A stretch of DNA of 55,837 bases, filler included, from Jimgerdemannia flammicorona (lineage: Eukaryota), in the NCBI GenBank assembly GCA_003990765.1. It is 3 parts of 3 records of this genome, joined end to end, with 100 filler letters (N's around TTAATTAATTAA, not from the genome) between each part and the next. Parts side by side here need not be neighbours in the genome. Positions count along the whole stretch, not along the records: positions 37,298 to 55,837 come from RBNJ01002184.1; 2 more parts are not named here. One strand, written 5' to 3'. Below the pieces are notes generated by a model that did not search any database, was not told the origin of the DNA, and saw only the letters and a list, made by a program, of their open reading frames with translations. The first letter of the stretch is position 1, and each line of letters begins with the position of its first letter. The position numbers were made by a program, and so were the translations under genes. Positions 16,800 through 49,975 of the stretch are shown here, in pieces.

Positions 16800-18305
16800 T
16801 GTCACGTAGTAGTCGCTGAGTCCTTCAAATATGCCAGATTCTCTTCAAGGTGTATCTCTTAGACTAACTCAAGTTGTTATAAGCAAGTTCTTATTGGAGT
16901 GCCTTCCCAAGGTCTTATAGTCCTCAAACTTCTTATCTTTAACTGTCTTGTTATCTCTTAGATTGCTTGTAAGGGATTGTGTGTAAGTGAACTGGAACTG
17001 ACTTTATTTCAGAGGAAATAAGGGAGGTATTTATACAAAATATGATTCAATGGTTGCTAAGATATAAAGCTAAATATAAATTCCAATAACTAAAACTACT
17101 GAGTTCCAGAGCTGGCATTATTTAGTACTACATCAAAATACCGGTGCTGGAACAATTTCGCGTCACCTCAGAATACCAGTGCTGGCATTATCCAGTGTTA
17201 CATGAGAATACCAGTGCTGGCATTATCCAGTGTAACAAAGAACTTTAGAGCAGAAAGTTCAGGACCATGGGGGCTTTATCATCATCATCATCACTGAAGG
17301 AGATGAGATCCGCGAATTCGTCATGCAGGTCACGCATCTCGCGTACTTCGGGTATGTTGCATGGGATGACGTCATCGCCGATGACGTCATCACGTTCGGC
17401 GGGGAAATCGGGGACAAGATTTGGAGCTCTCCAATCTATGAGGTTCTCTTCCACAAAATAGGGGACAAATGTGGGGTCTTGGGGGGATCTAACCCAGATG
17501 CTTGGGCCTTAGAATACTGAGATCAATCCTTGCAGGAATTGGTCTGGGTTGTCCTGAAGGATAGGGTGCCAGAAGTCTTCTACTTCTTCACTGTTGAGGG
17601 TGATGGTGGACTGGGCTTCTGTAGCTACCCTGGCTTCTAGTGCATTGATGCAGCAGGATGACAGGTCTCTGAAGTCTGAGACTCTAACATACTCCAAGTT
17701 GGGGATCGACCATGGTGCATGCCTGAAGATCTGATGGATCTTCTTTGCTGTCCTTGCCTCACATAGGTCTATGGGGGTGGCATCTTGTAGCTCTTGAGGG
17801 CTGGCCTGTGGGAACTCCCAGCAGAGGAGGTTTCCTATTTCATACTCCTGCCATATTTGGAGGCATTCGGTAGTGATGGTGATTCTTGTTTCCATTTCAC
17901 GGTGGTAGAGGATAAAGTGATAAGGGTCTGCAGTACCCAGGTTGACGCTAGGAGTCCTTCTTGAGTGGGTCCTCATGGCTCTTCTAATGTCTTGAAACAT
18001 CCTTTCCTCGACTGAGATACCTTGATGATTCCTTGACCTTGAGGTTTGGCGGGCAGCAGGCATTTTGTTTGTGGTAAGTCTTTGAGCTATTTTGGGATTA
18101 GGGTTCTTGTTGGCTGCTGCTACTGCAGTTCCTTGATCCTTCTTTTATATTCTTCAGGATGCTTGTGCTGTGGTTACAATGACTCACAGTTGGTCATCGT
18201 TGCTCATCTCGCATGCTGTATGATCTTCTTGTACTCTGATTCTTGTGGCTTGTAAAGAAAGGCTGTCTCCTGTGCTGATATCATCATTCTGGGGTCACCG
18301 TTACA
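16800..18305 (-). mobile_element. Solo LTR (1506 bp) with 4-bp target-site duplication ATGG
   Basis: Termini TGTCAC...GTTACA; ATGG at 16796-16799 and 18306-18309; removal restores LINE sequence GACTATATGGATAGAG (cf. 55501 GACTATTTGGATTGAG); minus-strand TATAAATA (17035-17028) and AATAAA (17008-17003). Confidence 0.88.
17245..18063 (-). pseudogene. LTR-embedded accessory ORF, 272 codons with one internal TAA
   Basis: Track ORFs 17509-18063 and 17245-17454 are in frame with no other stop between them; homologous to 39613-38630. Confidence 0.75.
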
Positions 18306-22974: not shown

Positions 22975-23329
22975 ACCTAATCTCAGAAGTATAGCAGATT
23001 TCTGTATTTTAGAAACTTGATCTTGTTCTGACTCTTATAGAGTTCTCAGAGTACAGAGGTGTAAGTTTGAAGTATATTTGCCTACAAACTTACTAGTTTC
23101 TTACTTTTTCTTTACTTTGAACTATTTTAATCTAAGGTTTATTTACACTAGATATTAGAATATTTATAGCAATAAAGTGGCTAAGTTATGACTATATTTT
23201 TTATAAGTCACTTTTCACAAGTATTGAATCTTTTGATATCTACTAAGATTTTAATATTTATAAGAATTTCAACATTTGCAGAATCTTAGCAATTGTTAAT
23301 GTTTTTATATTTATTGAATAACTAGCTAT
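22975..23329 (-). repeat. Older decayed LTR related to Gypsy G2 (target of the G2 insertion)
   Basis: Colinear with 23345-23700 but more A/T-shifted. Confidence 0.75.
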
Positions 23330-23791
23330 TGTAACATAGCAAACACTTAACCTTGGAAGTATATCAGATTTCTGTATCTTGAAAACTTAATCTTCTTTGA
23401 CTCTACAGAGTTCTTGGATGCAGTGGTGGGTGAGTTTGAAGTGTATCTGCCTGCAGGCTTACTAGTTCCTTGCTTTCTCTTTGTTTTAAACTATTTCGAT
23501 CTGAGGTTTATTCACTCTAAAATACTGGGTTATTTATACAAGTTTGTTAGCTATAAGATGGCTAAGTAATGAGTCATTTTGCAAGTATTAGATCTTTTAA
23601 CATCTGCTAGAATTCTACTGATTGCCAACTTTCTAACATCTCCTGAATCTTTGCAAACATTAAAGTTTCTGTACTTTGCAGAATATAACTGCTATTTGTA
23701 TGGCTATACTATATTGGAAATTGGGTTCAGGTACCATGATCAAATGTCTAATTCCCCTGATTCATGTTACTAATTTGGATCAACCATCACA
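23330..23791 (-). repeat. G2 3' LTR
   Basis: Direct repeat of 29572-30011; TG...CA termini; follows the PPT. Confidence 0.92.
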
Positions 23792-23832
23792 ACTTCCTTC
23801 TGAATAGGTGATTTATCTCTGAAATATCCTAT

Positions 23833-24198
23833 TCACTTGAACTCCCAGGCTTCTACAATTTGTATCTCCTTGTACTGTGTAATTTATGCTATTACATTCT
23901 TCCAGTATTGTCTCCTGATATATCCAAATTCTCCTGGAATTACTTCTTGGAAATGAGTTAGAGCTGGCTCATCATCCTTGAATAACTTGTATACTCTTTT
24001 GGCGATCATTATCTGAGTGTAGGAGAGCTGACATTCTCTGATCCAGTCTTCTTTTCTCATTTTTGGCTTTGAATTCAGTAGTTGTCCTAGTCTGAAGTAT
24101 TTCTGAAACTCGGTTCAGTTCTGGTAGGCCTTGAAGTGTGAAATTTGTAACAAGTGGGTCTGGACTATACTCTGGATGCTATTAAAGTATTCCTCCAT
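23833..24198 (-). pseudogene. G2 extra ORF3 downstream of integrase (~121 codons, two internal stops)
   Basis: MEEYFNSIQSIVQTHLLQISHFKAYQN*TEFQKYFRLGQLLNSKPKMRKEDWIRECQLSYTQIMIAKRVYKLFKDDEPALTHFQEVIPGEFGYIRRQYW... Confidence 0.65.
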
Positions 24199-24289
24199 TA
24201 TAAGTGGCTCAGCAGAACACCACTGTCTTTCTATGGCTCATTGGGTGGCACTTGTGATCTTGAGGGCAGCTGCATTACTTCATTGACTG

Positions 24290-27200
24290 TTTATGATACT
24301 TCTTGAGTCGGTTTCAGTAAATGGTAGTGGGGATGATGGTGCCTGAGAGTTTCCATAACTAAAAGGTAGTTCCTTTTATATCTTGCACAAGGTAAGGTCC
24401 TTTCCACTTAGGCTCCAGTTTTCATGACCATGAAGCTTCTACTATGTTCTGATATACTAGGACTTTGTCTCTTATCTTGATAATCTCTAGTGGCTTGTGA
24501 ATTTTTTCTGCATTATTCTGTTATAGTGTCTGCACCTTATTTATGTAATCTTTAGTCTTCTTTCTAATTTTGTATTGTTTTCATATCTCTGCATTCATAT
24601 GCTTCCATATAGTATCTCCATTAGATGATAGGGTTCCTTGGGAACTTTCTTCTCCAAATAGCATTTCTTGAGGGGTAAAGTGGGTGCTTTGTGATTGGAT
24701 ATCTCGGAGAGCAGATAATGTCATTGACAGATAGTGATCTCAGTTTTTGTAGTTATCACAGATCTTGACAATAACATTCTTAAGAGTCTTGTTGGTCCTT
24801 TCCATCTGTCTATTTCCTTGAGGGTGATAAGCTGTAGTCCGAATATGCTGAATCTTGTACTTCTTGTAGAGAACCTCAAAGAACTGGTTCACGAATTCTG
24901 TCTCTCTGTCTGTGGTTACTTACATTGGGGTCTTGAATCAGCAGATAATTTCTTTGTAGAAGAAATCAGCAATTGACTGTGCATTGGCTTCCTTGAGGGG
25001 TCCTGCCTCTATCTATTTGTGAAGAGGTCTACAATGATGATGAAGTATTGGTTACCAGTCAGGGTCAACTATAGAGGACTGATTACATCTATTGCAATGT
25101 GGGCAAATGGTGCTGGTTCTATATATGATGATTCTGGGGCTTGATTTTGTTAGTCTTGTTTCTGTTTCTGGCATTTGTCACATATCTTGACAAATTGTCT
25201 AATATCTTCCTCCATTCCTGGCCACTGCATTGTTCTTCTTGCTTTATTGTATATATTGGTTCCTCCTAGATGGCCAAGTTCATGTACTGATTGCATTGCT
25301 TGCTCCTTCTTGTATTCTGATATAACTAGTAGTTTTCCTTTCTTTAGTATTTCTCCATCAGTCTCAAATTGTTTCTATGTTCTATATTGATGATCATTTG
25401 TGTCCATTCTTCTAGATATTATAGCATCTTTCACTATCCCAGATATGTGATGATTCTATAGTAGAGTTCTTTATTCATGATTAATTTGCTGTTTGGGAGT
25501 CCTTCAGAGTGTCCATGAGAGGGCATCTGTATTGACATTAGTTCTTCCTGGGCAGTGCATGATTATTATATCATATACTTGTAACTTCATAATCCATCTG
25601 ATATAGATTTCTTTGGGTTGCCCAGTGGTCAGTAGCCAAGTGAGGGCTGAGTGGTCCATCTGGATGATAAAGTATCTTCCAGCAAGATAGTAGTAGAACT
25701 TTTCTACAGCCCAGATGACTACGAGATACTCCAACTTGTATAATTGATATTCTTTTTCAGCTCCTCAGGTTCCATGGCTGAGGTATGTAATGATATACTC
25801 TACTTTGTCCTTCTTTTGAACTAAGACTGCTCCTAGTCCTTGTGCACTTACATCTGTCTAAAGGATGAATTCTTGGGTCCAGTCTGGTCTTCTAAGGATG
25901 GGTGCCTGAGTCAGTCTGACCTTGAGCTCATCAAATGCTTATTGTTGCCTACCTGTCGATTGGAATTAGATGTCCTTTTTAGATTGGGCTTGTGATGTTG
26001 GAAAATCCCCTAATAAATCTGTGATAGTAGGAGGCAAGTCCCATGAAGGCTTGGACTTCAGTAATGGTAGTGGGTCTTGGGTATCCTGCTATTGCTTATA
26101 TCTTGAGGGGGTCCATATATATTTCATCTTGGTTGATAACATGACCCAGCTAGGAGATCTCAATTTCTGCAAACTTGTATTTCTTGGGCTTGATGTAAAG
26201 ACTATGTTCTCTCAGTTTCTCTATTATCTGCTGGATGTGCTGCAGATGTTCTTTGGCTGTCTTGCTGTAGATAATTACATCATCTATATAAACCATCATC
26301 TATCTTCTTATATCATAGTGGAAGATTTTGTTCATTATTCGCTAGAAGCTTGCTGGTGCATTGCACATTCTGAATGGCATTTGTAGGTAGATGTAGGTTC
26401 TGTCAGGGGTTTTGAAGGCTGACATTTCACTTACTGCTTTAGTGAGACCAATTTGATAGAATTCGGAGTATAAGTCCAAGGTACTGTAATACTGTACTTT
26501 ATCTCCTAGGGTTACAAGGATGTCACTGATAAGGGGCAGTGGTTGGTGATCCTTTTTATTGGCCAGATTGAGTTTTCTGTAATCGGTGCAGAGTCTTGGA
26601 GCGAATTCTCCTGGCTTGCTTCCTTTCTTTCAGGCTAGTATAACTGGTGAAGCCCAAGGGCTGCTGGCTTCTTTGATGATACCAGCTTCCTCCATCTGCT
26701 TGATTTCTTCTCTAAGCTATTCATGGTAGGCTAGTAGGAGGGGTCTTGCTTTCTAATAAATTGGTTCAGTGTCTCCTGTATCTACATCATAGTAGTAGTG
26801 TGGGGTCTTTTTTTTGATGTTCCTGAAATCTGTAGCAAGGACATTCTTGAATTCATAGAGTATCTTCTCAAGTTTCATTTTGAGTGGAAACTCATTTCCT
26901 ATGGTATAGCTATGCTTGTTTGTGGTTTCTTCCTTCTTGTGGTCCAGTTTGGTGATCTTGGTACTGGCAAATGCTCCTCTTCCTGTGGATCCAAATCCTT
27001 TTCTTCCTTTTTCTGTTTTATCCAGCTTCTTGACTTCCATGATCCTTAGCTGAAGAACTGGGAGGATCAACATCTGTGCTAGTCAGTCCTTCTTCTTGAA
27101 TGGAAATGGAATCATAGGATTGTGGTTTCTAGCAATAAGTAGTATTTCTCCAATATAATCGGAATCAATGACTCCTCCTTCAATTGTGATTTTGCTCCTA

Positions 27201-28213
27201 GCCTGGCTGCTTCTTGTCTTGAGGATTCTGACATGGTCTTTCAGAATGGTCATTTCCAGACCAGTTGCAAGTAGGGTGATTGTCTGGAATTCCAGTACAG
27301 TTTTCTCTACTGTGGTGATATTCATTCCGGCAGCATTTTCTGACTTGTATTCTGATAAGACTGCATTAGGGTAAATCTTCCAAATCTTGATCTTGATTTC
27401 CTCTTCATCATCACTGTCTTTGAGCAGAGCTGGTGGTTCATCATCCTCTTTCTCCCTTTTCTTTTCTTCTCTTACTTGTTTCTCAATGGCCTTCTCTCTT
27501 CTTTGATGGTAGGTTTTCTTGATTTTATCAGGACACTGGTAACACTCATTGATATACTCCATACAGTACATTCGGATCCCATGGGGGCAGACTCCTTGTG
27601 GTGCATATTCTTCTGTGATCTTCTTGCACCATTCTTCTTCACTCATCCATCCAACTTTCTTCTTTTTCTGAGTGGTCACCATGTAGGCTTCCTCTTATTC
27701 ACTCTCTTATTCCTCTATGTCAGACAGGACTCTCTTGTTGACATTGATAGGAATTCATATCTTCTGTCCTCTATAGATGATATGTATCTTCTGCACATTG
27801 AGGTCGATTATTGCTCTGGTTTTATGAAGCCATTGATTGCCAATGAGGATGTCATAGTTGGTTACATTGGTTACAATTACATCTACTGAGATGGTTGCTC
27901 CTCCAAACTTGATGGGAATATCTTTAATCTTTCCCAGAGGTGTGGCTCTTGTACCATCTGCTGTGATGAATACCAATTTGGTTGCTTCTTCAACCTCCCA
28001 ATCTAGATGGTCTACTGCATTTTTGCTGAGGAGGTATCCTCCTGCCCCAGTATCGATGATGGCTTCAAAGATTCTGTCTTCAATTTGGCAGATTGTATAG
28101 ACAAAAGTCTTGCAGTTGTCTTCACTTTCTTCTCCTGAGTCCTCTTGAATATTGTTGGCCTCAGTTATCTTCCATCCTTGTTCCTTAGTTGTTTTGGCAA
28201 GTCCAAACCTCAT
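24290..28213 (-). pseudogene. pol: G2 pol: aspartic protease, dUTPase, RT, RNase H, integrase
   Basis: IIDTGA (~28050), MVYIDDV (~26285), DHSALTWL and NTDAL (RNase H), KLEPKWKGPY (~24400). Confidence 0.92.
26980..27400 (-). pseudogene. dut: dUTPase domain within G2 pol
   Basis: All five dUTPase motif remnants: NAAGMNI, TRSS, GVIDSDYIGEI, D*LAQ (TGA where Arg is expected), RKGFGSTG. Confidence 0.9.
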
Positions 28214-28249
28214 TTGCTGTCTGAATGTTAGGATTTCTGCTAGCTGGCC

Positions 28250-29457
28250 AAAGGTTGCATTGACCTTTTATTGACTGAGATCCTTGAAGATATCATACTT
28301 GAAGGTCTTGGTTTTGCAAAGCTTCTTTTTCTTTTCTCCTTCACTAGCTGGAGTGGTTCCTCAGATGATATCTTGAACTGCTTGTTCCAGCTCTATATCT
28401 TGATCCATTTCTTCAGCTTGACTTTCTGTAGTGGTTTCTATCTGCTTTTCCACCAGGTTCTTCTTAGGTCTTCCTGGCAGTCTCTTGTACAGTTCTTTGC
28501 AGACATCTTTCTTAATAGTCTGGGCAGGATACACCTCTCATTCCTCTTCATCAGAGTCTCTAATTTCCTTAAATGTGATGATATTGGCCTGTTCCTTATT
28601 TCTAGTAGCATTGCTTGGCTGGGCCTTGTACTTGGTTTTGCTCATGTATTCATATGAGTAGTGGTCTTCCTCTCCATAGCTGTAGCAGGTACCTTTCTTC
28701 TTGTCTGTAGTAGTGGCAAACTTCTGAATTGGGTGGTGATCTCTTCCTCTGATTTCTTTTACTATATCTCCTAGGTGAGCAGTCATTTCAGCAAACTGCT
28801 TGGTGAGCTCCTCTATAGGGTTACTGTTTCTCTGCTGCTCTGTAGCTCTTGGCTGAGGTGTGTTTCGACTGATCATTGTGGTAGAGATTAACTAGTTGCC
28901 TTGGGTGCTTTGATTCCAACTCCAGTAACTCTTTCCATTATATGGTCTTGTGGGTGTCTGGCTATCTAATATTGCTGAGCATAGGTGATCTTCTGTGGCA
29001 GATCCAAGACTACTGGTGATAAGCGGATGGCCATAGTTATCTCTGGATGGACTCCTTTCATAAAGGTTGCTTTGGCTACTTGATCTCAGATAGCATCAGC
29101 ATAATCTGCAAGGATTATCTGATATTGGATTCTAGTATAGAATGTGTTTGGGTCCTCACTCATTCCTTGGTATATTATATTGAGCTGATCCTTCAGGGCT
29201 TGCTTGATCTCATTTATGTAATATGTATTTTGGAGCCAGGTCTTCTGTTCTATCAGTATAGCATTGGCATCATTTCCTGCATAAGTTGCAGCTGTGAATG
29301 CTGCTCTAGCAGGACCTCATAGGCTGAAGAGTATGAGAACTACTTGCTGTGCTGCCATCAGTGTCCTTACAGTGGCATACTGCTTAAAGTTATCAATGAA
29401 AGTGATGATTGATTTGTCTGAGGTATATCTATGGAATACTGGTAGTCTCATATCCAT
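28250..29457 (-). pseudogene. gag: G2 gag with decayed zinc knuckle
   Basis: Lies between PBS and protease; CYSYGEEDHYSYEY fits decayed CX2CX4HX4C spacing. Confidence 0.75.
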
Positions 29458-29571
29458 TTTGTCTAAGTATCTTGACTCAGTTTGTGTGGTTGTTTGAGTG
29501 GTGGCAGTTATTCATTATTCAGCTTAAAAGTGAGGGATTCATCTTGAATCACTAGCCAATGGGCACCAAGT

Positions 29572-30011
29572 TGTAATGTAGCAGATGCTTAACCTTGGAA
29601 GTATATCAGATTTCTGTATCTTGAAAACTTGATCTTCTTTGACTCTGCAGAGTCCTTGGATGCAGGGGTGGGTAAGTTCGAAGTGTATCTGCCTACAGGC
29701 TTACTAGTTCCTTACTTTCTCTTTGTTTTGAACTATTTTGATCTGAGGTTTATTCACTCTAAGATACTAGGTTATTTATACAAGTTTGCTAGCTATAAGG
29801 TGGCTAAGTAATGAGTCATTTTGCAAGTATTAGATCTTTTAACATCTGCTAGGATTCCACTGATTGCCAACTGCAAACATTAAAGTTTATGCACTTTGCA
29901 GAATATGACTGCTATTTGTGTGGCTATACTATATTGGGAATTGGGTTCAGATACTGTGATCAAATGTCTAATTCTCCTGATTCATATTACTAATTTAGAT
30001 CAACTGTCATA
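29572..30011 (-). repeat. G2 5' LTR
   Basis: Repeat of 23330-23791, about 22 bp shorter; followed by a TGG-starting PBS-like sequence. Confidence 0.92.
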
Positions 30012-35159: not shown

Positions 35160-36029
35160 TTATAAATAAATTTGAAAGAATTCATTAAGAGATCTTTAAT
35201 TACCAGTAAGATCTTGCTTATTCAGCTACTCTATCATCATTAGTACCATTACTAATTATACTATATGAAATAAAGAGATCAAAGATATTATTCAGAATAA
35301 GGTTATTACTAAGAAAGTTATCAAGAATGTTAAGTAATATAAAACTAAAAAGTATGGTCTTTTCAGAATTATCAAGGATACTGCTATAACTATTAGAGAT
35401 CTAGTTATTATAAAGTTAGTACTCTAATTAAGAATTATAATATTGGCTTTGGTCATATAGCTACTATTGGCTCTAGTATCATCAATAGTATTATTAGTAC
35501 TAATAATCTTACTATGAATAGTATTGTTGGCACCAGTAAGCTAATCAATATAGAGTATATAATATTCTCATCAATATTCTTCTACTGTTAATCCTGCTAA
35601 GGATTGTATCAAGATTATGGACTTTGCTGACAATATCACTATAACTCAGATAATTAATAGTAATGACTATTTTTTACTTTAGATTGATTAATCCAGCTCT
35701 GTCAAGAAGATGATAAGAATATATAAAATAGAAAGTCATATCAACTCAGACAATGAATGTTGATAACAATCTCCTATTTCAGGCTATAAAATATACCTCT
35801 GAGGAGAAGACTATTAAATGAAAAAGAAAATGGTGAAAATAAGTAAGTTTAGATCAAATTTAATTTGTTTTTATATATTTTTAAGAATCTATATAGTTTG
35901 TATAGTCTAAATGTTAAATAGAATATAGATTAGTTAATTATCATATTTAAAGTCAAAGATATATAAATAAATAAATAGAGGATTTGTTATTATCAGTTTT
36001 TAGAAATAGTTTCCAATAGATAAAAAAAG

Positions 36030-37197
36030 GCTATATCTTTTTCTCTAGTATTATATCAGTTACAAGATATAAATAAGTAACTATATATCTAAGTCTCCTT
36101 TCTTCTAACTTTATAATCTCTCCCTCAGTATAGTTTACTGTACCTATATAGATATAGTAGAAAAAAGGCAATAGTAATGATATGCCCTTTTATTAGTATC
36201 AGATTAGTACTTTCTCTACTTTTTTATAGTTTTTAGTATCTTCAGCTATATCTAGAGTATATCTAATTTGATGTAATATCTTCTTCTCTTTACTATTATT
36301 AAAAAGATATCATTTTGATATATTATGAATAATATATAGAGTCAGCTGATCTTGGGTATTAAGTATCAGTATAGGTTATTTATAGTTTATTAGTATCTAT
36401 AGTAGAGCTCTCTGAGATTTGGTGAGCTTTCCAGTGAGTACAATTTTGGTATAAGTAATTACTTTTCAGAAGAAATCAGAATGGAAAGAGAGATGACCTT
36501 TATAGATAAAAGGAAGGATAATTACAAGAAACTAGTAAAGTATCAGGCTGGGGGCAGTTATCTGGGCTGGAGCAAATATGTACTATATCAGTAGAGCCTT
36601 CTAATTGATACTAGATAGTTAGATAGTAGGTAGCTCTCAGTGATATATAAGTTTAGACTCTAGTTATTGGAAGTTGTTGGAGGGTCCAAGACTATCCAGA
36701 TTAGACATCTTAGTTATACTCAATCAGAACTAAGAGTTGATATAATAATATGATCAAAGTATATAGACTTGAGTAATAGAGTATTAGAGGTCTCCTTCTA
36801 TCTCAAATATAAGTCTTCTACTTATCTTATTAGAGAGAACCAGACTCTGCCCACTACTTGATATCTTTTGGAGAATTTTTCTTTACCTATTACTCTACTT
36901 GAAGTAGTAGAGACAATGCAAATTAACTTAAGTATAGCCTTATATATATGTTAGAGCTTTAGATGTATATCTTTAATTGGGAGTATATAGTCATTTCTCT
37001 CTAAAGTAGGAAGTGTATAGTATATAGAATGAGGTATAGGCTAACATAAGTCCTACTGTATCTAGTATAATTGAGCTGCTAAACAATAGCTAGCCTAGAT
37101 TTATAGAGATATAGTATATGAGAGAGAGTTTTGGCCTATATAGTCTAGATTCTTTTCTAATAAAAAGATATAGAGAGAATATTCCCATTATAAAAAA
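36030..37197 (+). mobile_element. Poly(A) retroposon family B, copy 2 (older)
   Basis: Colinear with 19314-20499 along its length (e.g. CAATAGCTAGCCTAG, GGCTGGGGGC), ends AATAAA...CCATTATAAAAAA. Confidence 0.8.
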
Positions 37198-37297
37198 NNN
37201 NNNNNNNNNNNNNNNNNNNNNNNNNNNNNNNNNNNNNNNNNTTAATTAATTAANNNNNNNNNNNNNNNNNNNNNNNNNNNNNNNNNNNNNNNNNNNN
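37198..37297. other. Artificial contig spacer
   Basis: Identical N44-TTAATTAATTAA-N44. Confidence 0.97.
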
Positions 37298-37500
37298 GGT
37301 CACTTCTTTCTTCTGATTCGGTTTTCTGGCTACTGGTGTTGAATAGGGTCCTGGCTACTGTTCTGACAAGGGTGTGGGCTTTCTTTTCTGCTGAGGAGGG
37401 CTGTTGCTGCCCCTGGTTTGGTTGCTGACTTGGTCCTGCTAAGTTCTCTACTGTAGATAGCTGGGTTCTTGAGCCAAATGGTCAAGTCTTTTGAAAACTT

Positions 37501-37517
37501 TCCCAGTTAAGCCCCCA
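37501..37517 (-). promoter_or_regulatory. tRNA-Pro-type primer-binding site
   Basis: TGGGGGCTTAACTGGGA resembles the tRNA-Pro PBS TGGGGGCTCGTCCGGGAT. Confidence 0.65.
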
Positions 37518-38389
37518 AAATGTGGCATCAGTTATGTATAATGAACTTCAACTGCATGGCTCAAAGTGCCACTGGTGAAGTGCGCGATGGATAACTGAGT
37601 ACATTCGTGACAGTTATGGGTCGATGATCACATGACGGATTATTCAATTCATGCAGTAATTGATAATGGGGAGGTCGTTTGGTTGTTCAATGGCTCAGGA
37701 CGTCGATGGCTCAATTGTTTAGTGGAAAAAGGTATTGTTGCTAACAGAGGGTAGTTATTATGCTGGCTAAGTTTCCTGGTGGCGATTAACTTGTCGGCAA
37801 ACTCGGCGACAACAGGCTTGCTCTTTATGCGGTCAATTAAAGTGGTCCATAGCGCAGTAGCTAGGAAAAATGGAGGTTGATGGCTTACTCATCCATCTTA
37901 ACTTGTTAGGTTCCTGGCAGTTGTTCGGGTCTTTGGCAGCAGGTCGGCCTTTGGTGGTCTAGTATCCTTTGGCTAGGTATCCTTGGGTTTCTGGGTCTTG
38001 AATCTCGAATGGCGGTCTCGAATACACGGTCCAAATGGCGGTCTGGTCTTGAATCCTTGGCTGGGTCTCGGGTCTTGAATGGCAGCAGTTGGGTAACATT
38101 TTCTTTCCATGGCAAGAGAAAATTCTTTAACTCAAACCTCGAGCAATCATTGCTCTAGTTATCTTGTTCTCAGAATTTATCCGGTCTCTTAGAGGCAGTG
38201 TGTTTTCTCTGTAAAACTATCTGGCTGAGGCTTTATTCACTCTAAGAATATGGGTTATTTATACAAGTTTGCTAGCTATGGGAGAGGGGGCGTGACTAAG
38301 GCTAAAGTATACTACATTGTGGCGAACTTATGCTATTGGTTTGCACGATGCGAGGTGCAGGCTATTGTTTACTACAGATTGGGTTGTAG

Positions 38390-38600
38390 GGGATAGCAAT
38401 GCTGGATTCGGACTTGCTGACAAAATGCTGAAAATGGCGGCACTGGATAGCAATGCTGAATTCGGATGAGCTGATATGATACAATGATTGTTGCCAGAAA
38501 TGGTTGTGGAGGGTGGCAATGCTGAATTTGGATCTGCTGACAAAATGCTGAAAACAGTGGTACTGGGTAGCAATGCTGGAAACAGACTTGCTGACAAAAG
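38390..38600. repeat. Imperfect ~54-69 bp tandem repeats in G3 LTR
   Basis: Four copies of GCAATGCTG(G/A)A, three followed by GCTGACAAAA. Confidence 0.8.
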
Positions 38601-38629
38601 CTGGGTTCTCATGGCTGATGGGTGGTACT

Positions 38630-39613
38630 CTAGAGGAAATAGTACCCTTTGTCTGTGGCGGGCAAATCTTGCTGGGTTGTGATTTCTTCTTCATCATATC
38701 TCTCCTCAAAGGGGGGAAGTGCCGGCCAAGAGGTGAGGGGGTAGAAAAGTGGCCAGTCATCTTCAACAATATTCTCCAACCCTTGAACAGCTTGAATGCG
38801 GACAGAGGACTGGTAGACTCTCTATTGCTCCTCTTCTTCTGAAGGCTCGTCAGTTTCGGTGTCAGAGGGGGTTTCTTCAGGGGCAGAGTCTTGGAGTTCT
38901 TGGGCCTCCTCTTCAAAGATAGGAACTTCTTGGACTTCTTCTTGATTCGGTTCCCAAATGATGAGGTGTGAATTGTGGCTGACAGGGTGGTGGGTGGTTG
39001 GAGTAGCTCCAACAGGTGTCTCTATAGTGATGGGCAGTCCTTCAAATATCTCTATAAGACTCATTAGGTGACCTTGATAGTTGTCTCAGAGTGGGGTGGT
39101 GTGGAAACCTAGCTGAGTAGGTTTGGTTTGTTAGCTTCCTATGGCAATGTAGTTGCTGCCAATAGTATTGGCTACTTCAGATTCTATCCAGTCAGCATCT
39201 TCAGTTGAAAGGTGGGAGAGGCTGCCAGCTGTTACTCCTTGCAAGTGTGCTATAGCCCAGGGAATATGGCGGAAGATTTGATGGACGTGGAGGGCTCTCT
39301 TGATTAGCAGGCTGGTGGTTAACATTTCGGCAATGAGGTCTTCCTGGTCGCCTTCTTGAGTCTCATTGCAAAGGCAGTGTCCGATTTCATAGTCATGCCA
39401 GAGGGTCATTTGTTCGGTAGTGTCTTTGAGCTATTGAGTCATTATATACCAGTAGTTGATGAAGTGTCCAAGGTCCTCAGTGTAGAAGTTCAAGTGTTCG
39501 GAAGTATCTGGGCACCAGATGGCCTTCTTGATAGCTTCAAAGATCAGGGTCTTTGGGTCAGGCAAAGGAGTAGAGTGGCGGGAGGTCTGGTTGGTTCAGC
39601 GAATGGGAGGCAT
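38630..39613 (-). pseudogene. LTR-embedded accessory ORF (~327 codons, several internal stops)
   Basis: MPPIR*TNQTSR..., then in-frame track ORFs 39131-39409 and 38822-39064; aligns to 18063-17245. Confidence 0.7.
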
Positions 39614-40662
39614 TGTGTGGTGGGTACTTGGTTCTTTGGTGCCAATCCTTGAGGCAGAGTATGGTTCCTTAAATAACATGGTCTTCATTTTGGCTCGGAT
39701 CATCTTGTCTTCTTTTGGAGTGATCACCTAATGGGTCAGGCTATCTATTTGATTGTCATGCCATTATGTCGTCTGATCTTAGCAGTCACCGGTACTCCAT
39801 TATCAATTGTGTACATCACACTAGTTTTAGAAGATAAAAATAACTCTTAGCTCTGAATTCTCAACAACTATAAAAGTCTGACTATTATAGATAATCTAGT
39901 AAATAAGTTTTTCTTGAAATAATTTTATAGAGAATCTTGGCTATTTAATATAAAAGAAATATTAATTAGTAATAAATTAATAAAATAGAAAATAAAAATA
40001 AAATAAAAAAGTTAATAAAATAATATTTTTTAAAAAAAATAATTCTATTCCTCTTGCTTGATAACTCTTATATAATTTATTAAAATATTTCTATAAATTT
40101 ATTATTGAGCTACCAATAAACTTATATGATATTTTATAGTAGTTTTATTTAGCTTTAGTATCTTCATTTTCTTTATACTTCTTTGTAAACTTCTTTAGAC
40201 TATACTTATTATAGCTATACTTATTAAAGCTATATCTGATATTGAAGTTATTATTATAGTATTCTCTATGAGTAGTAATATAGAAGATATATATATCTAA
40301 TATACTTAATTATAATATATTTAATTACTAAAGAGTATATATATATATTACTGTAAATCATATTATATAAAAGATTTGAATTCAAATTGAATTTCAAAAT
40401 TGATAACAGTGATGTTATCTAAAAAATAGCTATTTCAGAAAATATATACTACTTTTAGTTACTAAACTTAAGCTAAAATTTAAAAATTTTAAATTCAAAT
40501 CAAATTCAAATTAAATTAGATCTTGATTCAATTTAAATAAAATTAAATTAAACCTCAATTTAAATAATTGAATTGGTCCTCAATTCAATTTAAATATTTT
40601 AAATCAAATCAAATTAGGGACAAAATTTAATTTAATTTAATCTATTCTAAGTACTAATTAAA

Positions 40663-41029: not shown

Positions 41030-44000
41030 TAGAAGTATAGTAAATTTCTTTATCTTGAATACTTAATCTTCTTTAACTCCTCAAGTTCTCAGATATAGAG
41101 TGGGTAAGTTCAAAGTATATCTATTTACAGACTTACTAGTTTTTTATCTCTTTACTTGAACTATTTCAATCTGAGGATAATTTACTCTAGATACTAAAGA
41201 TATTTATATAAGTTTGCTTACTATATAGTAGCTAAGTTAGAACTTCTTTTCTGTGAGTTATTTCATATAGTTGAGAGATCTGTATATTTTTATAATTTGT
41301 ATAATTATAAATTTTATATAATTATATAAATTATACAACTGAGAGATTGAGTAACTACTATGCTATACTATATTAGAAATTGGATTTTAATACTATGATT
41401 AAATATCTATCTTCTGATTATTGTTTCTAATTCAGATTAACTATTATAACTTTCTCCTAAATAAGTAATTTTGCCCTCAGAATTACCTCATTAAACTCTC
41501 ATACTTTGATCAATAGTATGTTTTTATACTATATTATCTGCTCAATTATATTTTTCTAATAATATATCTTTACTTATCAGAAATCTTCTAGAGCTATTTC
41601 TTAGAAATTAGCCAGAGCTTACTTGTTATTTTTGAATAGTTTGTAGATTTACTTAGTAATAGTAATCTGGATATAAGATATCTAGCACTTAGCAATCTAC
41701 TCTTTTTTGGTTATATTTTTCTTTTTATTTAATAATTACTTTAACTGAAAGTACTCTTAAAACTCAGTACAAATCTGATAGACTTCAAAGTGTGAAATAT
41801 ATAATAGGTGAGTCTGTATAATACTTTAAATACTATAAAAAAAAAATCCTTTATAACTAGTAGTTTGGTAGAATACTATTGTCTTTTTATAGCTTACTGG
41901 ATAGTACTTGTAATTTTGAGAGTCAGAGCAATACTTTATTGGTTAGCTATAATACTTCTTAAGTCAGTTTTGATAGATAGTAGTGAAGATAATTATATAT
42001 CTAATAGTTTTTATAGCCAAAAGATAGTTTCTTTATATTTTATATAAGATAAAATACTCTAGTTTTCATAACTATAAAGCTTCTACTATATTCTAATATA
42101 TTAAAACTTTATCTCTTATTAATAATCTCCAAGAGCTTATAGATCTTTTCTATATTATTCTATTATATATAATACTTATACTTTGATTATATAATCTTCA
42201 GCCTTCTTTCTTATTTAATGTAATCTTTATATCTCAATATCTATACTATATCTCTATTGAATGATAGAGTTTCTCTAGAACTTTTTTCTCTAAATAGTAA
42301 TTTTCAAGAGATAAAATAAGTACTTTGTAATTATATATTTTAGAGAGCAGATAATGCTATTAGCAGATAGTGGTCTCAATTTTTATAGTTATTATAAATT
42401 TTAACAATAATATTCTTGAGACTCTTATTAGTTCTTTCTATCTATCTATTTCTCTATAGATAATAAGCTATAGTTCAAATATACTGAATCTTGTATTTTT
42501 TGTAGAAAATCTTAAAAAGTTAGTTTATAAATTCTGCTTCTCTATCTATTATTACTTACTTTAGTATCTTGAATTGATAGATGATTTCTCTATAAAAAAA
42601 AATCAGCAATTGACTATACATTGACTTCTTTGAAGGGTTCCACTTCTGTCTATTTTATAAGGAGATTTATAATAATAATAATATATTGATTACTAGTCAA
42701 GATCATTAGTAGAAAACTAATTATATCTATTACTATGTGAGCAAATAGTACTAGTTCTATATCTGCTAATTCTGATATCTAATTTTATTAATCTTACTTT
42801 TATTTCTGATATTTGTTACAGATATTGACAAATTGTCTGATATCTTTCTCTATTTCTGATCACTATATTATTCTTCTTACCTTATTATAGATATTTATTT
42901 CTCCTAGATAGCTAAGTTTATATATTAACTTCATTACTTATTCTTTCTTATGCTTTGGTATAACTAGTAGTTTTTCTTTCTTTAGTATTTCTCCATTAGT
43001 TTCAAATTATTTTCAGATTCTATTGATAATTATTTATATCTATTCTTTCAAATTTTGAGGTATCTTTTTCTATCTCAGATAGGTGATAATTCTATAGTAG
43101 AGTTCTTTATTTAGTTTGGTTTTACTAGTTGTAAGTATCTATGAGGGTATATCTATATTAGTATTAGTTCTTTCTAGATAATATATAATAGTTACATTAT
43201 AGGCTTATATATAGCTTCATAATCTATTTAATGAATATTTCTTTAAATTTACTTATAGTTAATAGCTAGATGAGGGCAGAATAGTCAGTCAGAATAGTGA
43301 AGTATCTTTCTACAAGATAGTAGTAGAATATTTCTACTGTCCAGATAACTGCAAGATACTCTAGCTTATAGAATTCATATTCTATTTCTCCACTGTGAGT
43401 TTCATAGCTGAGATATATATAATCACATATTTAACTTTTTTCTTCTTTTATATAAAAATAGCTTCTAGTTCAATTGAGTTTATATCTATCTACAGAATGA
43501 ACTCTTGAGATCAGTTAAGTTATCTCAAGATGAGTATCTAGGTCAATTAGACCTTGAGATATTCAAAAGCTTATTACTATCTATTAGTCTATTGAAACTT
43601 AGTATCCTTCTTGAATAGTTCATAAAAAGGGTCTACAATATTAGCAGTTACAGTCTATCCAAGATCTATCATAGTTATAGAAGTTCAAGCTTTCATAGAA
43701 CTTACTATCTATTACAGATAGTTTATTAAGAATTCTCCAAAATTTTAATAGAGTTTATATAAGTTCTAGTCTAATTAATAATATATCTGAGATAGAAGAT
43801 CTTAATTTCTGTGAACTTATATTTCTTTGGCTTAATAAATAGGCTATGTTCTCTCAATTTCTGCAAGATTTGATAGATATAGTTTAGATATTTCTTAGCT
43901 ATCTTACTGAAGATGATTATATGTATCATTCATATAGACCATCATCTATTTATTTATATTTTCTCATAAGATCTTATTCATTATTCTCTAGAAACTTACT

Positions 44001-45130
44001 AGAATATTGTACATTCTAAATAATATTTGTAGATAGACATATATTCTATCTAGAGTAATAAAAACTGACTTTTTACTGACTTTCTTAGTGAGACTGATTT
44101 GATAGAATTCTGAATATAAATCTAAAGTAGTATAGTATTGTACTTTATCTTCTAATATCACTAAGATATTATTGATGAGAAGCAGTAGTTGGTGATCCTT
44201 CTTGGTAACTTTGTTGAGTTTTCTGTAGTCTGTATAGAGTCTTGAGATAAATTCTTCTAGCTTACTTCATTTCTTTAAAGCTAGTATAATTAGTGAGAAC
44301 TATAGACTAATAACCTTCTTGATGATATCAGCTTCCTTTATCAGCTTTATTTTTTCTCTGAGCCATTTATAATATACTGATAGAATTGATTTTGTTCTTT
44401 AATAGATTAGCTCAGTATCTCTTATATCTATATTATAATAATAGTATGGTGTTTTTTCTTAGATATTTTGAAATTGGTGACAAGAATATCTTTAAATTTA
44501 TATAACAACTTCTTGAATTCTTTCTTGAATAAATATTAATTTTCAATAGTATAGTTATACTTATCTCAATTTTCTCCTTCTTGTAGTCTAATTCAGTAAT
44601 ATTAATATTAACAAAAACTCCTCTTTCTATAGCTCTAAGTTCTTTCCTTTTTCTTTTAGCTTTTCTATTTCTAAATCTTAGGTTGTAGTACTAGAAAGAT
44701 CAGTATTTGTATAAGTTAGTCCTTTTTCTTAACTACAAATATATAGAATTGTGAAATTGTAGTTCCTAGTAGTAAGTAGGATTTTTTCAATATAATCAAA
44801 ATCAATAACTCTTATTTTAATCAAACTTTCACTCTTGGCTAGACTACTTGAATATTCTGATATAGTCTTAGGAATAGTCATCTCTGGATTAGTTATAAGT
44901 AAGATAGTTGTCTGAGGTTTAAGAATTATCTCCTCAACTATAATAATATATATCTATTCTAGCTATAATTTCTGACTTATATTTTGGCAGGATAAATTCT
45001 CTAAATCTTGACCTTGATTTCTTCTTTATCATCACTATTCTTTAGAAGAACTGGTAGTTCATCCTCCTGGTCTTTTTTTTTTTACTACTTTTGTCTTCTT
45101 TCTTTCTTCTTATAATAAATCTTATAGATA
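41030..45130 (-). mobile_element. Older G2-related Gypsy copy (3' LTR, ORF3, IN, RH, RT, dUTPase), 5' part missing
   Basis: Colinear with 23345-27530; LTR ~41030-41448; dUTPase remnant ~44620-45020. Confidence 0.88.
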
Positions 45131-45196: not shown

Positions 45197-48100
45197 CACA
45201 AACTTTACAATATACTCTTAAGCTGTTTATTAGAGAAAGATACTAACAACATAGCAACTAATAAGTAATCTGATAAGTATACTAGATCAGATAGACCTGA
45301 GACCTTTGACTGATAATATATCAGAAGAGAGTATAGTATAGAGATGGAGTTTTTTTTTTTTTAGTAATGAGTAGATAGAGAGAACTGAGCAAGAGTCAGC
45401 CATTAAGTATAGGTAGAGATAGGTAGAGGCTGATGAGTTTTACTAATAAGATGAAGATAGAGAGCTAGCTCAGAGGTATTTAGAATAGTAAGACTAAAGA
45501 AAAGAAAAAGATAAGTACTGAAAGGACTAGTGGATCAATAGCTAGTAGAGCTGGTATAGGAGCTAGTGAAGCTACTACTAGGGGTAGAAAAGTAACTACT
45601 GATAGTAGTATGATAGGAGATCTGACAAAAAATTCAGATATAACTATTAATAGTAGAGCTAGATAGATGGGCCATAATGGGAATGGAGATCTGATAGATA
45701 GTGTAATGGGCCTAGTGATGACTCTATTACTTAAGAAGTTGATCTCAGAATTCACTATCATATTGTACTTGAGGACTAGATTGATAGTTGGTAAGATAGT
45801 GATACTGATGACTCAGTGCTTGAGATAGGACCCAAGAGTGGTTCAGCTCCTGATAAAAGGAGTACTCATAGTGATAATAGCTGAGATGAGGAGAAGGATA
45901 AAGGAGGTTATAGTAGAGTATAGTAATGTTATAGATATTGGATTCTGGGTCTAGAAGAGAACCTTATTCCAGATTAGAGATATAGACATCTAACTCTGAC
46001 TTGCAGAGAAGAAGGTTACTGAGAAGGCTTGAGATTGACCTTTTGTAATAATATGAAGTATCTTTATTTATAAGATAGCAAGAGTGAAGAATAGTAAGGA
46101 GAAGGAGGAGGAGGATCTGTAGAAGTTCTAGAGAAGCTTAGTGGAGTAGTAGAGTATAGAGTGGTAGTATAGGAGACTTTTAAGATATTAATATATCTAA
46201 AAGTAATAAATGAGAAGCAGATTTATATTAATAAGGTGATGTGAGAGAAGGCTTAAAGAAGAAAGAGATAGAAGGATCTGTTGATAGGATTGAAGGAGAG
46301 ATATGTAACTAGGATTGAGGTGAGTCTAGAAAGAGTGGGGGTGAGTACTTAGACTAGAGATAGAGCCAGAGAGATATTGAAGAGTAGAGAACAAGAAGAC
46401 TAGAGACCAGTAGCTCTATAATAATAGTATACTTGAGATCTAGAAAGAGAAGAAGGAGCAAGAAGTGAGAACTAGTGCTTAGACCAGAGAGGGTGTAGAG
46501 GATATGGAGATGAGAAGTATACAAAGGGTCTAGTTTGGAGTATCTAATATAGTGATGGGTGGGCAGATGATTGGAGTTATAGAGAATGAGCTATAGGATA
46601 TTTAGAAGGAGAGATAAGATAAGTCTGCAAGTATCAGTATTGATGTTATAATATAAGAAGAGAAGAGGTCTGATATCTCTAAAAGAAAGAATATTAGTAA
46701 CTTATACTAGATAAGTGTAATAATAAATGATAGCTATAGAAGAGCTGGAGGAATTGAACTTGAGGATTATAAGTAAGAATTACTAGATAAGAGTACTGTA
46801 GGGTAATAGACTAATGGTAGAGATATTGACTATATTCTTAGAAAAGAAAGATTATGAATTGATAGTAGTTACTGGGAAATAGACAGCCTTCTAGTAGAAG
46901 TAGTAACATAAACTATAGCTTTGATAGACGGTATATAAAAAATATAAGAATGAGATGGAGGAGAAAAATAATAAGACATTGGCTAAAATTCTGACTAGAT
47001 TGGAGGCTAAGAAGATTGAAAAGAAAGAGATTATTGCAGAACATAGTCTAGACTTAGCTTAAGAGGAGATGAGTATAGAACTATAAGGAGATTGAAATTG
47101 CTCTATAATATTATTTATTTATAAACAGTATAACTAACATTTTCTCATTAAATATAAATAGTTTGAAGAGCTTTATGAGGTATAGAAATATTTTTGCTTG
47201 ACTGAGAGAATTAGATATAGATATCTTTCTATTATAGAATATATATTATAAGGGAGACTTAGACAAATAGAGGTAGATAAAGAAATGGAGTAGTATGGTA
47301 GTTTGGAGAAATAAGGTGGAAATTTTAATATAAAAGGGTAGAGGAGACCTTTGTGAGATCAGAAGATGGAGAGAATATTTAGTTTAGGAGAAGTGATAGA
47401 AATCTGGATGAGAGCTAATAGTTATTAACTCTTGCTATTACTCTATAGTTAGAGGGGACAAAGTGGAGTAGATAAATAGTCTATATAAGTATAATATACT
47501 TGCTGAGGCTAGTATAGATATACTTAGTGAGAATTTCAATATAGTGCAGAATATACTGTTAGATAGAACTGATGGAGAAAGAAGTACTAGATATAAAAAA
47601 AAAAAAAAAAAAAAGTACTAGAGACAGAAGTGGCAGTCTAGATATCTGAGAGAAGATAGACTATCTAAGTCTTTGATGGATACTAACAGGATGTTGTGAG
47701 GGGATAAGAGAATTTATATCTATTGAATAAATAGACTTAAAATAAAAATTGACTGAATGCTGACTGCTGACTACTGGGGGATAGATATCTGAATTGATCT
47801 GAAGATTATATAGTACCTTTGATCAGATCATTAAGGGCTAATAAAGTATAGTTGATATGGGGGAAGTGGGGATAGATCTGGATATTAGTATCTTAATTAC
47901 TCTGAGAGATTTAGGTAGAGGATATTGGGTCAAAAATTATCTACTGGAATCATGAGGAGTCTTCTGTGGGGGTCTGCTGAGTGAAGTTGAAAGAGACTAT
48001 TAAGATATACTGGGGTAAGGCTGGAAGATTCCTAGGGGTATAATAGAGATAGCAGATATAGTGGACTTCTTATTAGTTGGAGATATTATAGCTGAAATGG

Positions 48101-49975
48101 ACCAGTTTATTAAGATAAGAGACTATAGAAGATTGGAGACTAGAATGAGCTCAGATAGAGGTAGAGGAGTTAAAGATGAGGAAGAGGCTCAGACTCAGAA
48201 TATGGTAGCTCAGTTATAGTGACAGAAGCTTGAGAAAGATGAGAGGCCTACTAAATATCTGTCTTGACTTCTTCAGGCAAAGAGAGTATAGTAGCAGTAA
48301 GATAGAGTGTTAAATAAGGAGAGTATCCTAGTGACTGAGATGTAATAGATCTTAGATTCTTTAAAGAGTCAGTAGAGAGGTCTGTGAAGTAAGAAAAAAG
48401 AGAGTGCAGATGAGGAGACTATTGGGTACTCTCTGGAGAATTGGTACCCTCTGCAGATTGGTGGACTTGAAGATTTGATTCTGCTAGTCTAGAAGGATGA
48501 GATTCTAAGTATTCTATTAGCTATAAAATTAGATATAGCTTCTGGCAAAAATGGCCTACTTTGGGACTTTTGGAAAAAGATGATGAGAGTCTCAGGAGTA
48601 TTGGTAGAGATGAAGATACTTTGCAACTTTGTCCTCATAATTAAGAAGTAGGTTAGAGGGCAAGACCTTAGTCTGGTAGTATTATTATATAAGGATAAGA
48701 GTAGATAAGAGAATTAAAGAAATTGGAGACTAATTATGCTTCTAGATATAGACAAGAAGTTGATCACTAAGGTGATTATTGAAAGGCTGCAGAGAGTGGT
48801 CTAATAGATATTAGAAGCTAAGCAATGAGGCTTTATTAGTAGTAGGCTAATTAGAGATAGGATAGTATGAATATATAGTATAATTAAAGAATGAGGGCTA
48901 GTAGACTAGATGAGAGATTGGTCTTTCCAGATCAGAAGAAGGCTTATGATCAGATTTAGTAAGTTTTACTAGAGAAAGTGTTAGAGAAAATTGTCATCTA
49001 TCATCAGTTTCAGATTTTAATAATTAGTCTATTGGAGAGCAGTAGAGTGACAATTTTATATAATAACTATTATAGTACTATATTCTCATTAAGGAGAGAA
49101 GTTTCCCAGGGAGATCCATTGTCTCTTATCCTGTATACTCTGTCATTAGAGTTATTTATGGATAGGATTTACTATAAGATATTAGAGTTTTCAGTCTTTG
49201 GAGTAGTCTGAAAGGTTGGGGCCTTTGTAGATAATATAGTAGTTGAACTTAGCACTATTACTGAAGTGAGCACACTGAGGAAGACTGTGGATTAATATGA
49301 AGAGCACTCTGGGGTAAAGCTCAACTAGTATAAGTATGAGACAATAGTGCTGAAAAATGGTTTAATAGGTGAGAACATTGTTGATGCTATTTTCTCTATA
49401 GGGGAGATAGTACATTATCTAGATATCTTTATATTAATATACAGATTAGTCTTACTCAGAGCTTAGTAGGAAAGGAAGGTAGTGGAATGGAGGAATATTC
49501 TTCAGAGTTAAAAGAAGTACTATATTTCTTTTATCAGATAGATATTAATTCTAAATATCTATTGACTACTGAGACTCTAGTATTTGATATACTACTTGGA
49601 TTTTTCTACTTAGATAGTAAAGAGGTTGTTAAAGATGGCTAAAGACTGGATTTGGGCTGAAAGAAGGAGTTAGATAAGTTGGGAGGTCTTAGTAACTCTG
49701 GTGGGCAAAAGAGGGATCAGTCTGGTAGACTTCCCAAAGAGGTTATATAGTCTTAGGGCTTAGTGGTTGAAGAGAGCTATTGAGCTATAGAGAGGTAGAT
49801 AGGTGTTATTGATATAGAGAGTCTGAGAGGCAAGGTTCTCCCCTAGAGAACTCTCTGATAATTTGCTATCTATAGTTAGATTAGGAGACAGTAGATACTT
49901 ATATCAGAGATTCTGATAGAGAGTAGTAGAGAGTACTTACTGTATTGACTTATACTAATATAGTAGTAAGGATGA
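45197..49975 (+). mobile_element. LINE family A, copy 4 (5' end intact, 3' truncated, heavily decayed)
   Basis: SQGDPLSLILY (~49110), FVDNIV; decayed ORF2 start ~47120; shared 5' motif. Confidence 0.9.

Follow-up and report, generated by a model that had tools for sequence, protein, structure and literature searches.

The window analyzed here is a 55,837-nucleotide (nt) stretch of DNA from the fungus Jimgerdemannia flammicorona (assembly GCA_003990765.1). It contains two diverged long terminal repeats (LTRs) of retrotransposons, LTR A and LTR B, and each of them carries a copy of the same kind of gene. Our results support an LTR retrotransposon with an accessory gene in U3, the unique 3' region of the LTR. 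The stretch is made of three contigs that are joined at 18550-18649 and 37198-37297 by linkers of 44 N, TTAATTAATTAA, and 44 N, and because these linkers are artificial, adjacency across them is uninformative. Both of the gene-bearing units sit at or near contig ends, which is expected if the assembler broke in repeats. The features of the two units are as follows.

37298..37499, minus strand: start of the internal region (leader), cut by the contig end
37500..37517, minus strand: putative primer-binding site (PBS), TGGGGGCTTAACTGGGAA, 3 nt (three T) past the LTR end
37521..39820, minus strand: LTR B, read as the 5' LTR of an LTR retrotransposon, 2300 bp, with TGTG..CACA ends
38232..38284, minus strand: core promoter of the LTR, TGTATAAATA, followed after about 20 nt by GTGAATAAA; presumed border of U3 and R; TATAAA at 38263-38258 and AATAAA at 38237-38232
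38375..38594, minus strand: region of tandem repeats that separates the gene from the core promoter, 2 x 120 nt, with each repeat built of two units of about 55 nt
38630..39613, minus strand: LTR-borne gene, copy B, 327 codons and a stop, with five in-frame stops and no frameshift
39669..39675, minus strand: TATA-like box TATTTAA, candidate promoter of copy B by its motif only, 62 nt upstream of the ATG
39821..39824, no strand: CTAG flank, by its sequence a possible half of a target duplication
16800..18305, minus strand: LTR A, 1506 bp, a solo LTR from a sister family, with TGT..ACA ends
16796-16799 and 18306-18309: ATGG target duplication of LTR A
17106..17237, minus strand: tandem repeats, 35 nt x 3.8, directly past the stop of copy A
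17245..18063, minus strand: LTR-borne gene, copy A, 272 codons and a stop, with an in-frame TAA at codon 185

LTR A interrupts a repeat that bears a reverse transcriptase (RT) domain. In both of the other copies of this repeat (54760-55707 on the plus strand and 5615-4629 on the minus strand), the site is continuous. Specifically, the flanks of LTR A at 16059-16799 and 18315-18512 match 54760-55510 and 55510-55707, and the reverse copy matches the same flanks at 5615-4881 and 4872-4629. In an alignment of these junctions, the insertion is flanked by ATGG at each end, and the empty sites have ATGG once. So LTR A inserted as a discrete unit and duplicated 4 bp of its target, which is what a solo LTR should show, and the gene is wholly inside the LTR. 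Counting from the 5' edge, there is a TATAAA at 157, the ATG of copy A at 243, the LTR's own TATAAA at 1271, an AATAAA at 1298, and the end at 1506. The layout of LTR B follows the same order, with TATTTAA at 146, the ATG at 208, its own TATAAA at 1558, an AATAAA at 1584, and the end at 2300. Beyond its core block, LTR B continues for about 700 nt of presumed R and U5 to the ..CACA edge, the three T, and the PBS.

To study the edges of LTR B, we used DNA contigs from four soil-metagenome runs, which were mapped on 37298-40100 (509, 51, 8, and 8 contigs placed); X1 and X2 are two of these runs. The initial annotation had put the ends of the unit at 37521 (TGTGGC..) and 39820 (..CATCACA), and we find them there. 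At the 39820 edge, five soil contigs (four from X1 and one from X2) depart from the window exactly behind the last base, and all five go into one common continuation. The summed contig depth is 170 at 39742-39835 and about 1 in the next bin. Because the continuation is common to these contigs, it is element sequence and not the flank of an insertion. On the element strand it is purine-rich, ending in ..GCAAGGGGCAGA and abutting TGTGATG. Judging from these sequences, the edge at 39820 looks like the junction of a polypurine tract (PPT) with the 3' LTR of full-length copies, in metagenome relatives. At the other edge, X2 record 9 (37298-37568) spans the LTR end, the PBS, and the leader, and it is the only bridging contig among the contigs listed. 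(X1 record 1, at 37344-37524, enters the LTR by just 4 nt, and we did not count it as bridging.) The PBS starts with TGG, and its 18-mer is kept in metagenome contigs apart from one transition: the ninth base (37509; A to G on the plus strand) is C in 8 of them.

The core promoter block ties these LTRs to other elements. A block with TATA and AATAAA motifs lies downstream of the open reading frame (ORF) in LTR B, and this block is shared by LTR A, by a related metagenome locus, L001, and by both LTRs of another element in the window, Gypsy1. Also, many otherwise unrelated metagenome contigs match 38232-38284 alone. The 5' terminus of LTR B, TGTGATG, is also the start of the 3' LTR of Gypsy1, where it comes right after a purine tract. 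Gypsy1 and its relatives are these.

23329..30004, minus strand: Gypsy1, a short-LTR element with LTRs of about 450 bp that are 88% identical; its domain remnants are ordered RVP_2, RVT_1, rve
23773..24198, minus strand: decayed ORF3 of Gypsy1, between the integrase remnant and the PPT and 3' LTR
about 41032..45107, minus strand: Gypsy2, an older copy of the Gypsy1 type, 69% identical to Gypsy1

Could the LTR be shorter than we think? If the ORF-bearing half of unit B (about 38600 to 39820) were the 3' internal end of an upstream tandem element, then the LTR would start near 38600. The initial annotation had itself raised this scenario. LTR B is unusually long, at 2.3 kb; the related short-LTR elements in the window have ORF3 just outside the LTR; and the recognizable core promoter lies downstream of 38300. 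However, the five contigs switch and the depth collapses at 39820, not at 38600, and X2 record 12 is unbroken over 38661-39449. Furthermore, the homologous unit A is bounded by ATGG, and its edge comes 243 nt before the ATG. These observations contradict a start near 38600, and we give it almost no chance of being correct.

Alternatively, the units might not be LTRs at all. They could be a non-autonomous DNA transposon or a captured cassette with a host gene, and then the strings that resemble a PBS and a PPT would be coincidental. In the window, neither unit has pol attached, the terminal inverted repeats are just 3-4 nt, and a 4-bp duplication is not exclusive to LTR elements. But the TG..CA ends, the TGG-initiated 18-mer at 3 nt, and the purine tract that independent contigs have at the other end jointly make up the canonical signature of an LTR. 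Moreover, the TGTGATG terminus and the TATA/AATAAA block are common to the paired LTRs of Gypsy1, which is an element with protease, RT, and integrase. So we consider it highly improbable that these units are something other than LTRs. The proposal that unit B is a 5' LTR that contains the ORF and is followed by a PBS is supported by the contig junction at 39820, by the bridging contig, by unit A, and by the common TATA/AATAAA block.

Turning to the gene, the peptide pairs that first suggested homology between the units are real. In a six-frame translation, LWHDYEIG at 39403 pairs with IWQEYEIG at 17856, and HQIFRH is present at both 39283 and 17736, all on the minus strand. Both frames also have the MP..R start (MPPIR and MPAAR) and the acidic tail that had been described. 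BLASTP of the A and B translations gives E = 2e-20, which is far beyond chance, with 56 of 191 positions identical and a colinear match from the first Met. In contrast, there is little DNA similarity elsewhere, as the initial annotation had stated. In a self-comparison of the window with blastn (42 high-scoring segment pairs at E ≤ 1e-5), no pair joins units A and B. With a word size of 7, blastn of A against B finds a single significant segment, in the core of the ORF (58% over 246 nt, E = 5e-7). Between the LTR types, the alignable DNA is the ORF core and the TATA/AATAAA block only.

One part of the initial annotation needs to be corrected. It had the ORF of copy B ending at the acidic tail, after 264 codons, but that end is a premature stop, and the frame continues to 38630, for 327 codons. 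The in-frame stops are at codons 6, 61, 161, 177, and 266 (TGA, TAG, TAA, TGA, and TAG/TAA, respectively). An intact relative from a metagenome, P0018 (325 amino acids, from a cluster of 6 sequences), is 75% identical to copy B over 314 amino acids and has R, Q, Q, R, and Q at the five stops. Also, at 39598 two metagenome contigs read G, which changes the first TGA of copy B to CGA. Similarly, codon 185 of copy A (TAA) is Q in P0002-P0007.

The family to which these proteins belong is an orphan. A word-index search found six relatives of the A type, including the full-length P0003 (271 amino acids and 75% identical to A), and two of the B type (P0018 and P0011). An exhaustive profile search found 11 proteins at E ≤ 0.001 among 1,835,955,588 representatives, and all of these are short metagenome proteins of the same kind. 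Among them is a third type, P0010, which is intact and has 342 amino acids. More distant members (P0013, P0014, P0016, and P0017) keep the core W.EYEIG..L and A.R.HQIFRH.P..I..L, and the motif DNPDQFLQGL..F.GP is conserved in the family. A search of metagenome contigs yielded one locus with its DNA, L001, from 46 candidate stretches; it is 1345 nt long and contains an intact ORF of 323 codons, without LTR edges. None of 43 candidate stretches from viral contigs and none of 40 from genome contigs gave a related locus. Within the window, tblastn of 17 family proteins gave matches at loci A and B plus two weak rows. One of these, from P0007 (17142-17279, E = 0.002), falls on the last part of ORF A and on the LTR A repeats, and the other is discussed below.

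Copy B is dead, and the gene has been under selection in the past. To judge from its sequence, copy B is a pseudogene. Its stops are mostly of the C-to-T or CpG type, and among the replacements that are specific to it, many turn R into C, H, or W, a typical mark of CpG decay. The excess of A/T in the window is consistent with this: of 102 differences between X1 and the window, 68 have A or T in the window and G or C in the contigs (38 A to G and 30 T to C), and the remainder are 23 reverse transitions and 11 transversions. Comparing copy A with L001, the proportions of differences are 0.27 at nonsynonymous sites and 0.67 at synonymous sites, the differences at the three codon positions number 97, 59, and 131, and the ratio of nonsynonymous to synonymous divergence (dN/dS) is about 0.20, which is a rough value because dS is near saturation. 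Copies A and B are saturated at synonymous sites (0.72, versus 0.49 at nonsynonymous sites). Intact ORFs of 271-342 amino acids persist in diverged relatives from soil metagenomes. Given these intact ORFs and the dN/dS of about 0.2, the earlier suggestion of past purifying selection stands.

It might be argued that the ORF is a fragment of a host gene that was transduced by chance and has no role in the element, and that its conservation reflects recent common descent. The protein has no recognized domain, and LTR retrotransposons do capture host sequence. On the other hand, at least three LTR types (A, B, and L001) have the gene in one and the same position and orientation, and otherwise these types can be aligned in the core promoter only. 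The ORFs are intact despite protein identities as low as 28-30%, and the excess of differences at third codon positions, together with the dN/dS, argues for long selection while the gene was borne by the element. Nor did a stand-alone cellular homolog appear among the 1.84 billion representatives, where the 11 matches are all of the same kind. For these reasons we find a chance passenger quite unlikely.

What might the protein do? It is, according to structure models, an all-helical N-terminal domain of about 140 amino acids, which is confidently modeled, plus a disordered acidic tail. For full-length P0003, AlphaFold2 gives a predicted local distance difference test (pLDDT) score above 90 over residues 70-160 or so, with the acidic tail disordered; for the domain alone (residues 14-165 of A), the pLDDT is 89.9 and the predicted template modeling score is 0.83. 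Copy A hits no Pfam family at E ≤ 10, and none of the Pfam hits across 18 members of the family is credible (the best has E = 0.024, and the hits are to unrelated families in at most 3 of the 18). A profile search of the sequences in the PDB gave one match, at E = 0.33, which we take to be noise. In the ESM Atlas, the best feature score was 0.83, where the bar was 0.9, and TM was at most 0.33. Helix-turn-helix (HTH) proteins of the ParB type (SopB, VirB, P1 ParB, and KorB) recur near the top of both fold scans, over about 80 residues and with Z of 2.7-4.1. In the VIA-align scan with the model of the domain, these are 3mky_P (Z = 4.1, with a root mean square deviation of 4.6 and 80 residues aligned), 3mkw_B (3.9), 3vwb_A (3.5), 1zx4_A (3.3), and 8qa8_A (2.7). 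With the full-length model they are 3vwb_A (4.0), 1zx4_A (3.6), and 3mkw_B (3.5). All of these scores, in both scans, are under the caution level of the tool, and we treat the likeness to ParB-type HTH proteins as a weak lead.

If the element does use the gene, its replication and expression can be sketched. The gene is downstream of the plus-strand priming site, so the genomic RNA would contain a single copy of it, in the 3' U3, and reverse transcription would copy it into both LTRs. Solo LTRs would retain it, as at 16800-18305. The gene would be transcribed from its own upstream TATA into a short mRNA, with the poly(A) signal of the LTR as the end point. As for motifs at this candidate promoter, GAATATAAAAG stands 86 nt upstream of the ATG in A and 65 nt upstream in L001, and L001 begins with it. 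On a tentative reading, the protein would act in trans as a regulator of the element, and it might bind DNA. Another possibility is that the structure is as we describe and the function is different: the protein could be a structural factor or could counter host defenses, for instance as a suppressor of silencing or a particle-associated protein. It has no significant match to a fold or family, and the functions of accessory ORF3s vary widely among LTR elements, according to a rotifer study (PMC5408684). Although the hints are weak, the ParB-type HTH matches, the acidic tail, and the adjacent tandem repeats lean toward a DNA-binding regulator. So we consider a different function to be possible but somewhat unlikely.

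The tandem repeats may also be of interest in themselves. Metagenome contigs have joints in the 38375-38594 region that go back to an earlier position, and this suggests that the number of repeats in LTR B varies between copies. A 13-mer, CCAGCAYTGSTAT, occurs with at most one mismatch at three sites in the repeats of LTR A (17138-17220) and at three sites in those of LTR B (38393-38579). It has no other site in the window, where 0.23 would be expected. We dropped it as a candidate binding site: the motif was taken post hoc from the same repeats, and L001 has no match to it that is better than chance.

The gene might have come from inside the element. The second weak row from tblastn, and the sole match outside of units A and B, is P0013 at 24165-23923 (E = 0.001), and this is the ORF3 of Gypsy1. 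By blastp, P0013 matches this ORF3 with E = 4e-7, and it matches the profile of the LTR-gene family with E = 4.4e-6, library-wide. When a profile of the core family (11 sequences) is compared to P0013 and ORF3 together by hhalign, the probability is 96%, with E = 2e-9 over 129 columns. A word-index search for the context of P0013 returned P0013 itself only. On these sequence comparisons, the link between the LTR gene and ORF3 is transitive and moderately supported. If the link is true, then families A and B have within their LTRs the same accessory gene that the short-LTR family has outside its own. Specifically, the gene would descend from an ORF3 between integrase and the PPT of related short-LTR elements, and, as the simplest route, a move of the plus-strand priming site to an upstream position would have brought it into the LTR. 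We are evenly divided on whether the gene shares descent with the internal ORF3 of the Gypsy1 type and took this route. As for Gypsy1 itself, its integrase remnant matches rve with E = 2.5e-4, and the PBS of Gypsy1 (TGGTGCCCATTGG..) is not the same as the one in element B.

Overall, we think it probable that 37521-39820 is the 5' LTR of an LTR retrotransposon on the minus strand, with a complete accessory gene in its U3, and this is the best explanation that we have. Several points weigh against this explanation or against parts of it. First, just 220 nt of the contig lie beyond the PBS, and the window does not include the 3' LTR of B, its pol, or its target duplication. Judging from sequence, element B is probably related to Ty3/gypsy, and because its pol is missing from the window, this assignment rests on shared LTR motifs only. 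Second, the PBS was assigned from its TGG start, its position, and its conservation in metagenomes. Over the first nine and the last four bases it resembles the PBS type that pairs with tRNA-Pro in some retroviruses, which makes tRNA-Pro a candidate partner. Third, the depth at 37580-37860 (about 1920-2240 of the LTR, in the presumed U5) is 1-4, versus 50-340 elsewhere in X1. One metagenome contig skips 37593-37706, and this segment may be variable or specific to one copy. Fourth, the roughness of the dN/dS applies here too. Fifth, for the protein, Foldseek against the PDB has no match at E ≤ 0.001 (the best have E = 0.71 and 1.7), and the exhaustive structural scan with VIA-align has none at Z ≥ 5, which is the level that the tool treats as meaningful. 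Sixth, the TATA boxes of the two-promoter model are motifs that were found by eye and by string search. Finally, the tie to ORF3 depends on transitivity: the core family profile against the ORF3 of Gypsy1 alone has E = 0.034 and a probability of 1.5%.

To our knowledge, a gene inside an LTR is a layout that is otherwise known mainly from a few complex retroviruses. The sag gene of mouse mammary tumor virus (MMTV), or "LTR ORF," is a complete frame in U3; both proviral LTRs contain it, as does the genomic RNA near its 3' end. The gene that we describe is likewise complete within U3, and sag is the closest analogue by position. Its sequence is not related to sag, and no Pfam family was found for the 18 members, so the likeness is only positional. 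Another difference is that the host of our gene is a retrotransposon of the fungal type, without env. Also, Sag is a membrane glycoprotein, while the modeled product of the LTR gene looks like a soluble helical domain with an acidic tail. Other retroviruses have accessory genes at the 3' end (tas/bet, or bel, of foamy viruses and nef of lentiviruses) that start upstream of the PPT and overlap U3. In foamy viruses, a transactivator that binds DNA and has an acidic activation region is expressed from its own, internal promoter. The likeness to tas/bet and nef is that of a 3'-terminal accessory gene that overlaps U3, and a transactivator with an internal promoter is our working model here. Unlike tas/bet and nef, the whole gene and its candidate TATA box are inside the LTR, and there is no homology.

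Internal accessory genes are well described for Ty3/gypsy and other LTR retrotransposons. The ORF3s of LTR retrotransposons from bdelloid rotifers are accessory and internal, between pol and the 3' LTR (PMC5408684). The same is true of the additional ORFs (aORFs) of plant LTR retrotransposons, in a review where the phrases "in the LTR" and "within the LTR" are absent (PMC7264820). As in our case, these are accessory genes that are borne by the element downstream of pol, and their functions are unknown or diverse. The difference is that in our case the boundary of the LTR lies upstream of the gene. A full-text search of the literature found no description of a fungal retrotransposon with a gene in its LTR; because it left most subscription journals uncovered, this is not proof of absence. 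What is new here, then, is the proof of a solo LTR with a target duplication, the PPT junction in independent contigs, and the corrected length of the gene, as well as the intact relative of 325 amino acids with sense codons at all five stops and the confident but unmatched fold. The possible descent of the LTR gene from an internal ORF3 is also new.

LTRs are treated as non-coding control regions. They are masked by the pipelines that find and annotate them and are ignored by gene callers. A selected gene that is wholly in U3 has its dose doubled in each element, and recombination between LTRs does not delete it, since it stays in the solo LTR that is left. It can also have its own promoter beside the promoter of the element. 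In animals, sag, nef, and bel mark the "complex" retroviruses, which manipulate the host or their own transcription. Finding this layout in fungal retrotransposons, with intact copies in soil, would extend this category. And an orphan protein whose fold is confidently predicted and has no match is a testable candidate for a regulator that is encoded by a transposon.

A more specific scenario can be imagined. A fungal lineage of the Ty3/gypsy type would have shifted its priming site upstream of ORF3, which would have made the gene into an LTR cassette with its own promoter. The product would be an acidic-tailed, DNA-binding regulator whose targets are the tandem repeats of the LTR that encodes it, in an autoregulatory circuit like those of Tas or Tax, and this would be a "complex retrotransposon" outside of animals. 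We doubt that all of this will hold together. If it were true, then every insertion would carry two copies of the gene, each solo LTR left behind by recombination would still have a complete one, and solo LTRs could supply the factor in trans. A shift of the priming site, if confirmed, would also be a simple way for LTRs to become longer and to gain genes.

The rest of the window holds old repeats. All three contigs are dense with decayed retroelements, and the remains between them are very AT-rich. CpG is strongly depleted: its observed-to-expected ratio is 0.37 and 0.42 in the two LTRs, versus 0.0-0.1 in the old repeats nearby. Gypsy2 has decayed to 25% GC and a CpG ratio of 0.0, and it thereby shows how AT-rich sequence forms in this region. 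Scans of the window gave no Rfam matches and no tRNA genes. The RT-bearing repeats are at 1-8400 on the minus strand (RVT_1 has E = 1.6e-8 at 6205-6552) and at about 45800-55700 on the plus strand. They are extremely strand-asymmetric, with a GC skew of about -0.45 in the former and +0.47 in the latter, and their CpG ratio is 0.01-0.07. A frame of 188 amino acids at 52105-52671 looks by eye like an endonuclease, and it has no Pfam match at E ≤ 0.001. Finally, two direct repeats of 1.2 kb, at 19296-20490 and 36016-37197, are 64% identical, and each ends with AATAAA and a poly(A) run. These are probably the 3' ends of a family of non-LTR retroelements or of elements similar to short interspersed nuclear elements, and they are unrelated to the LTR gene.

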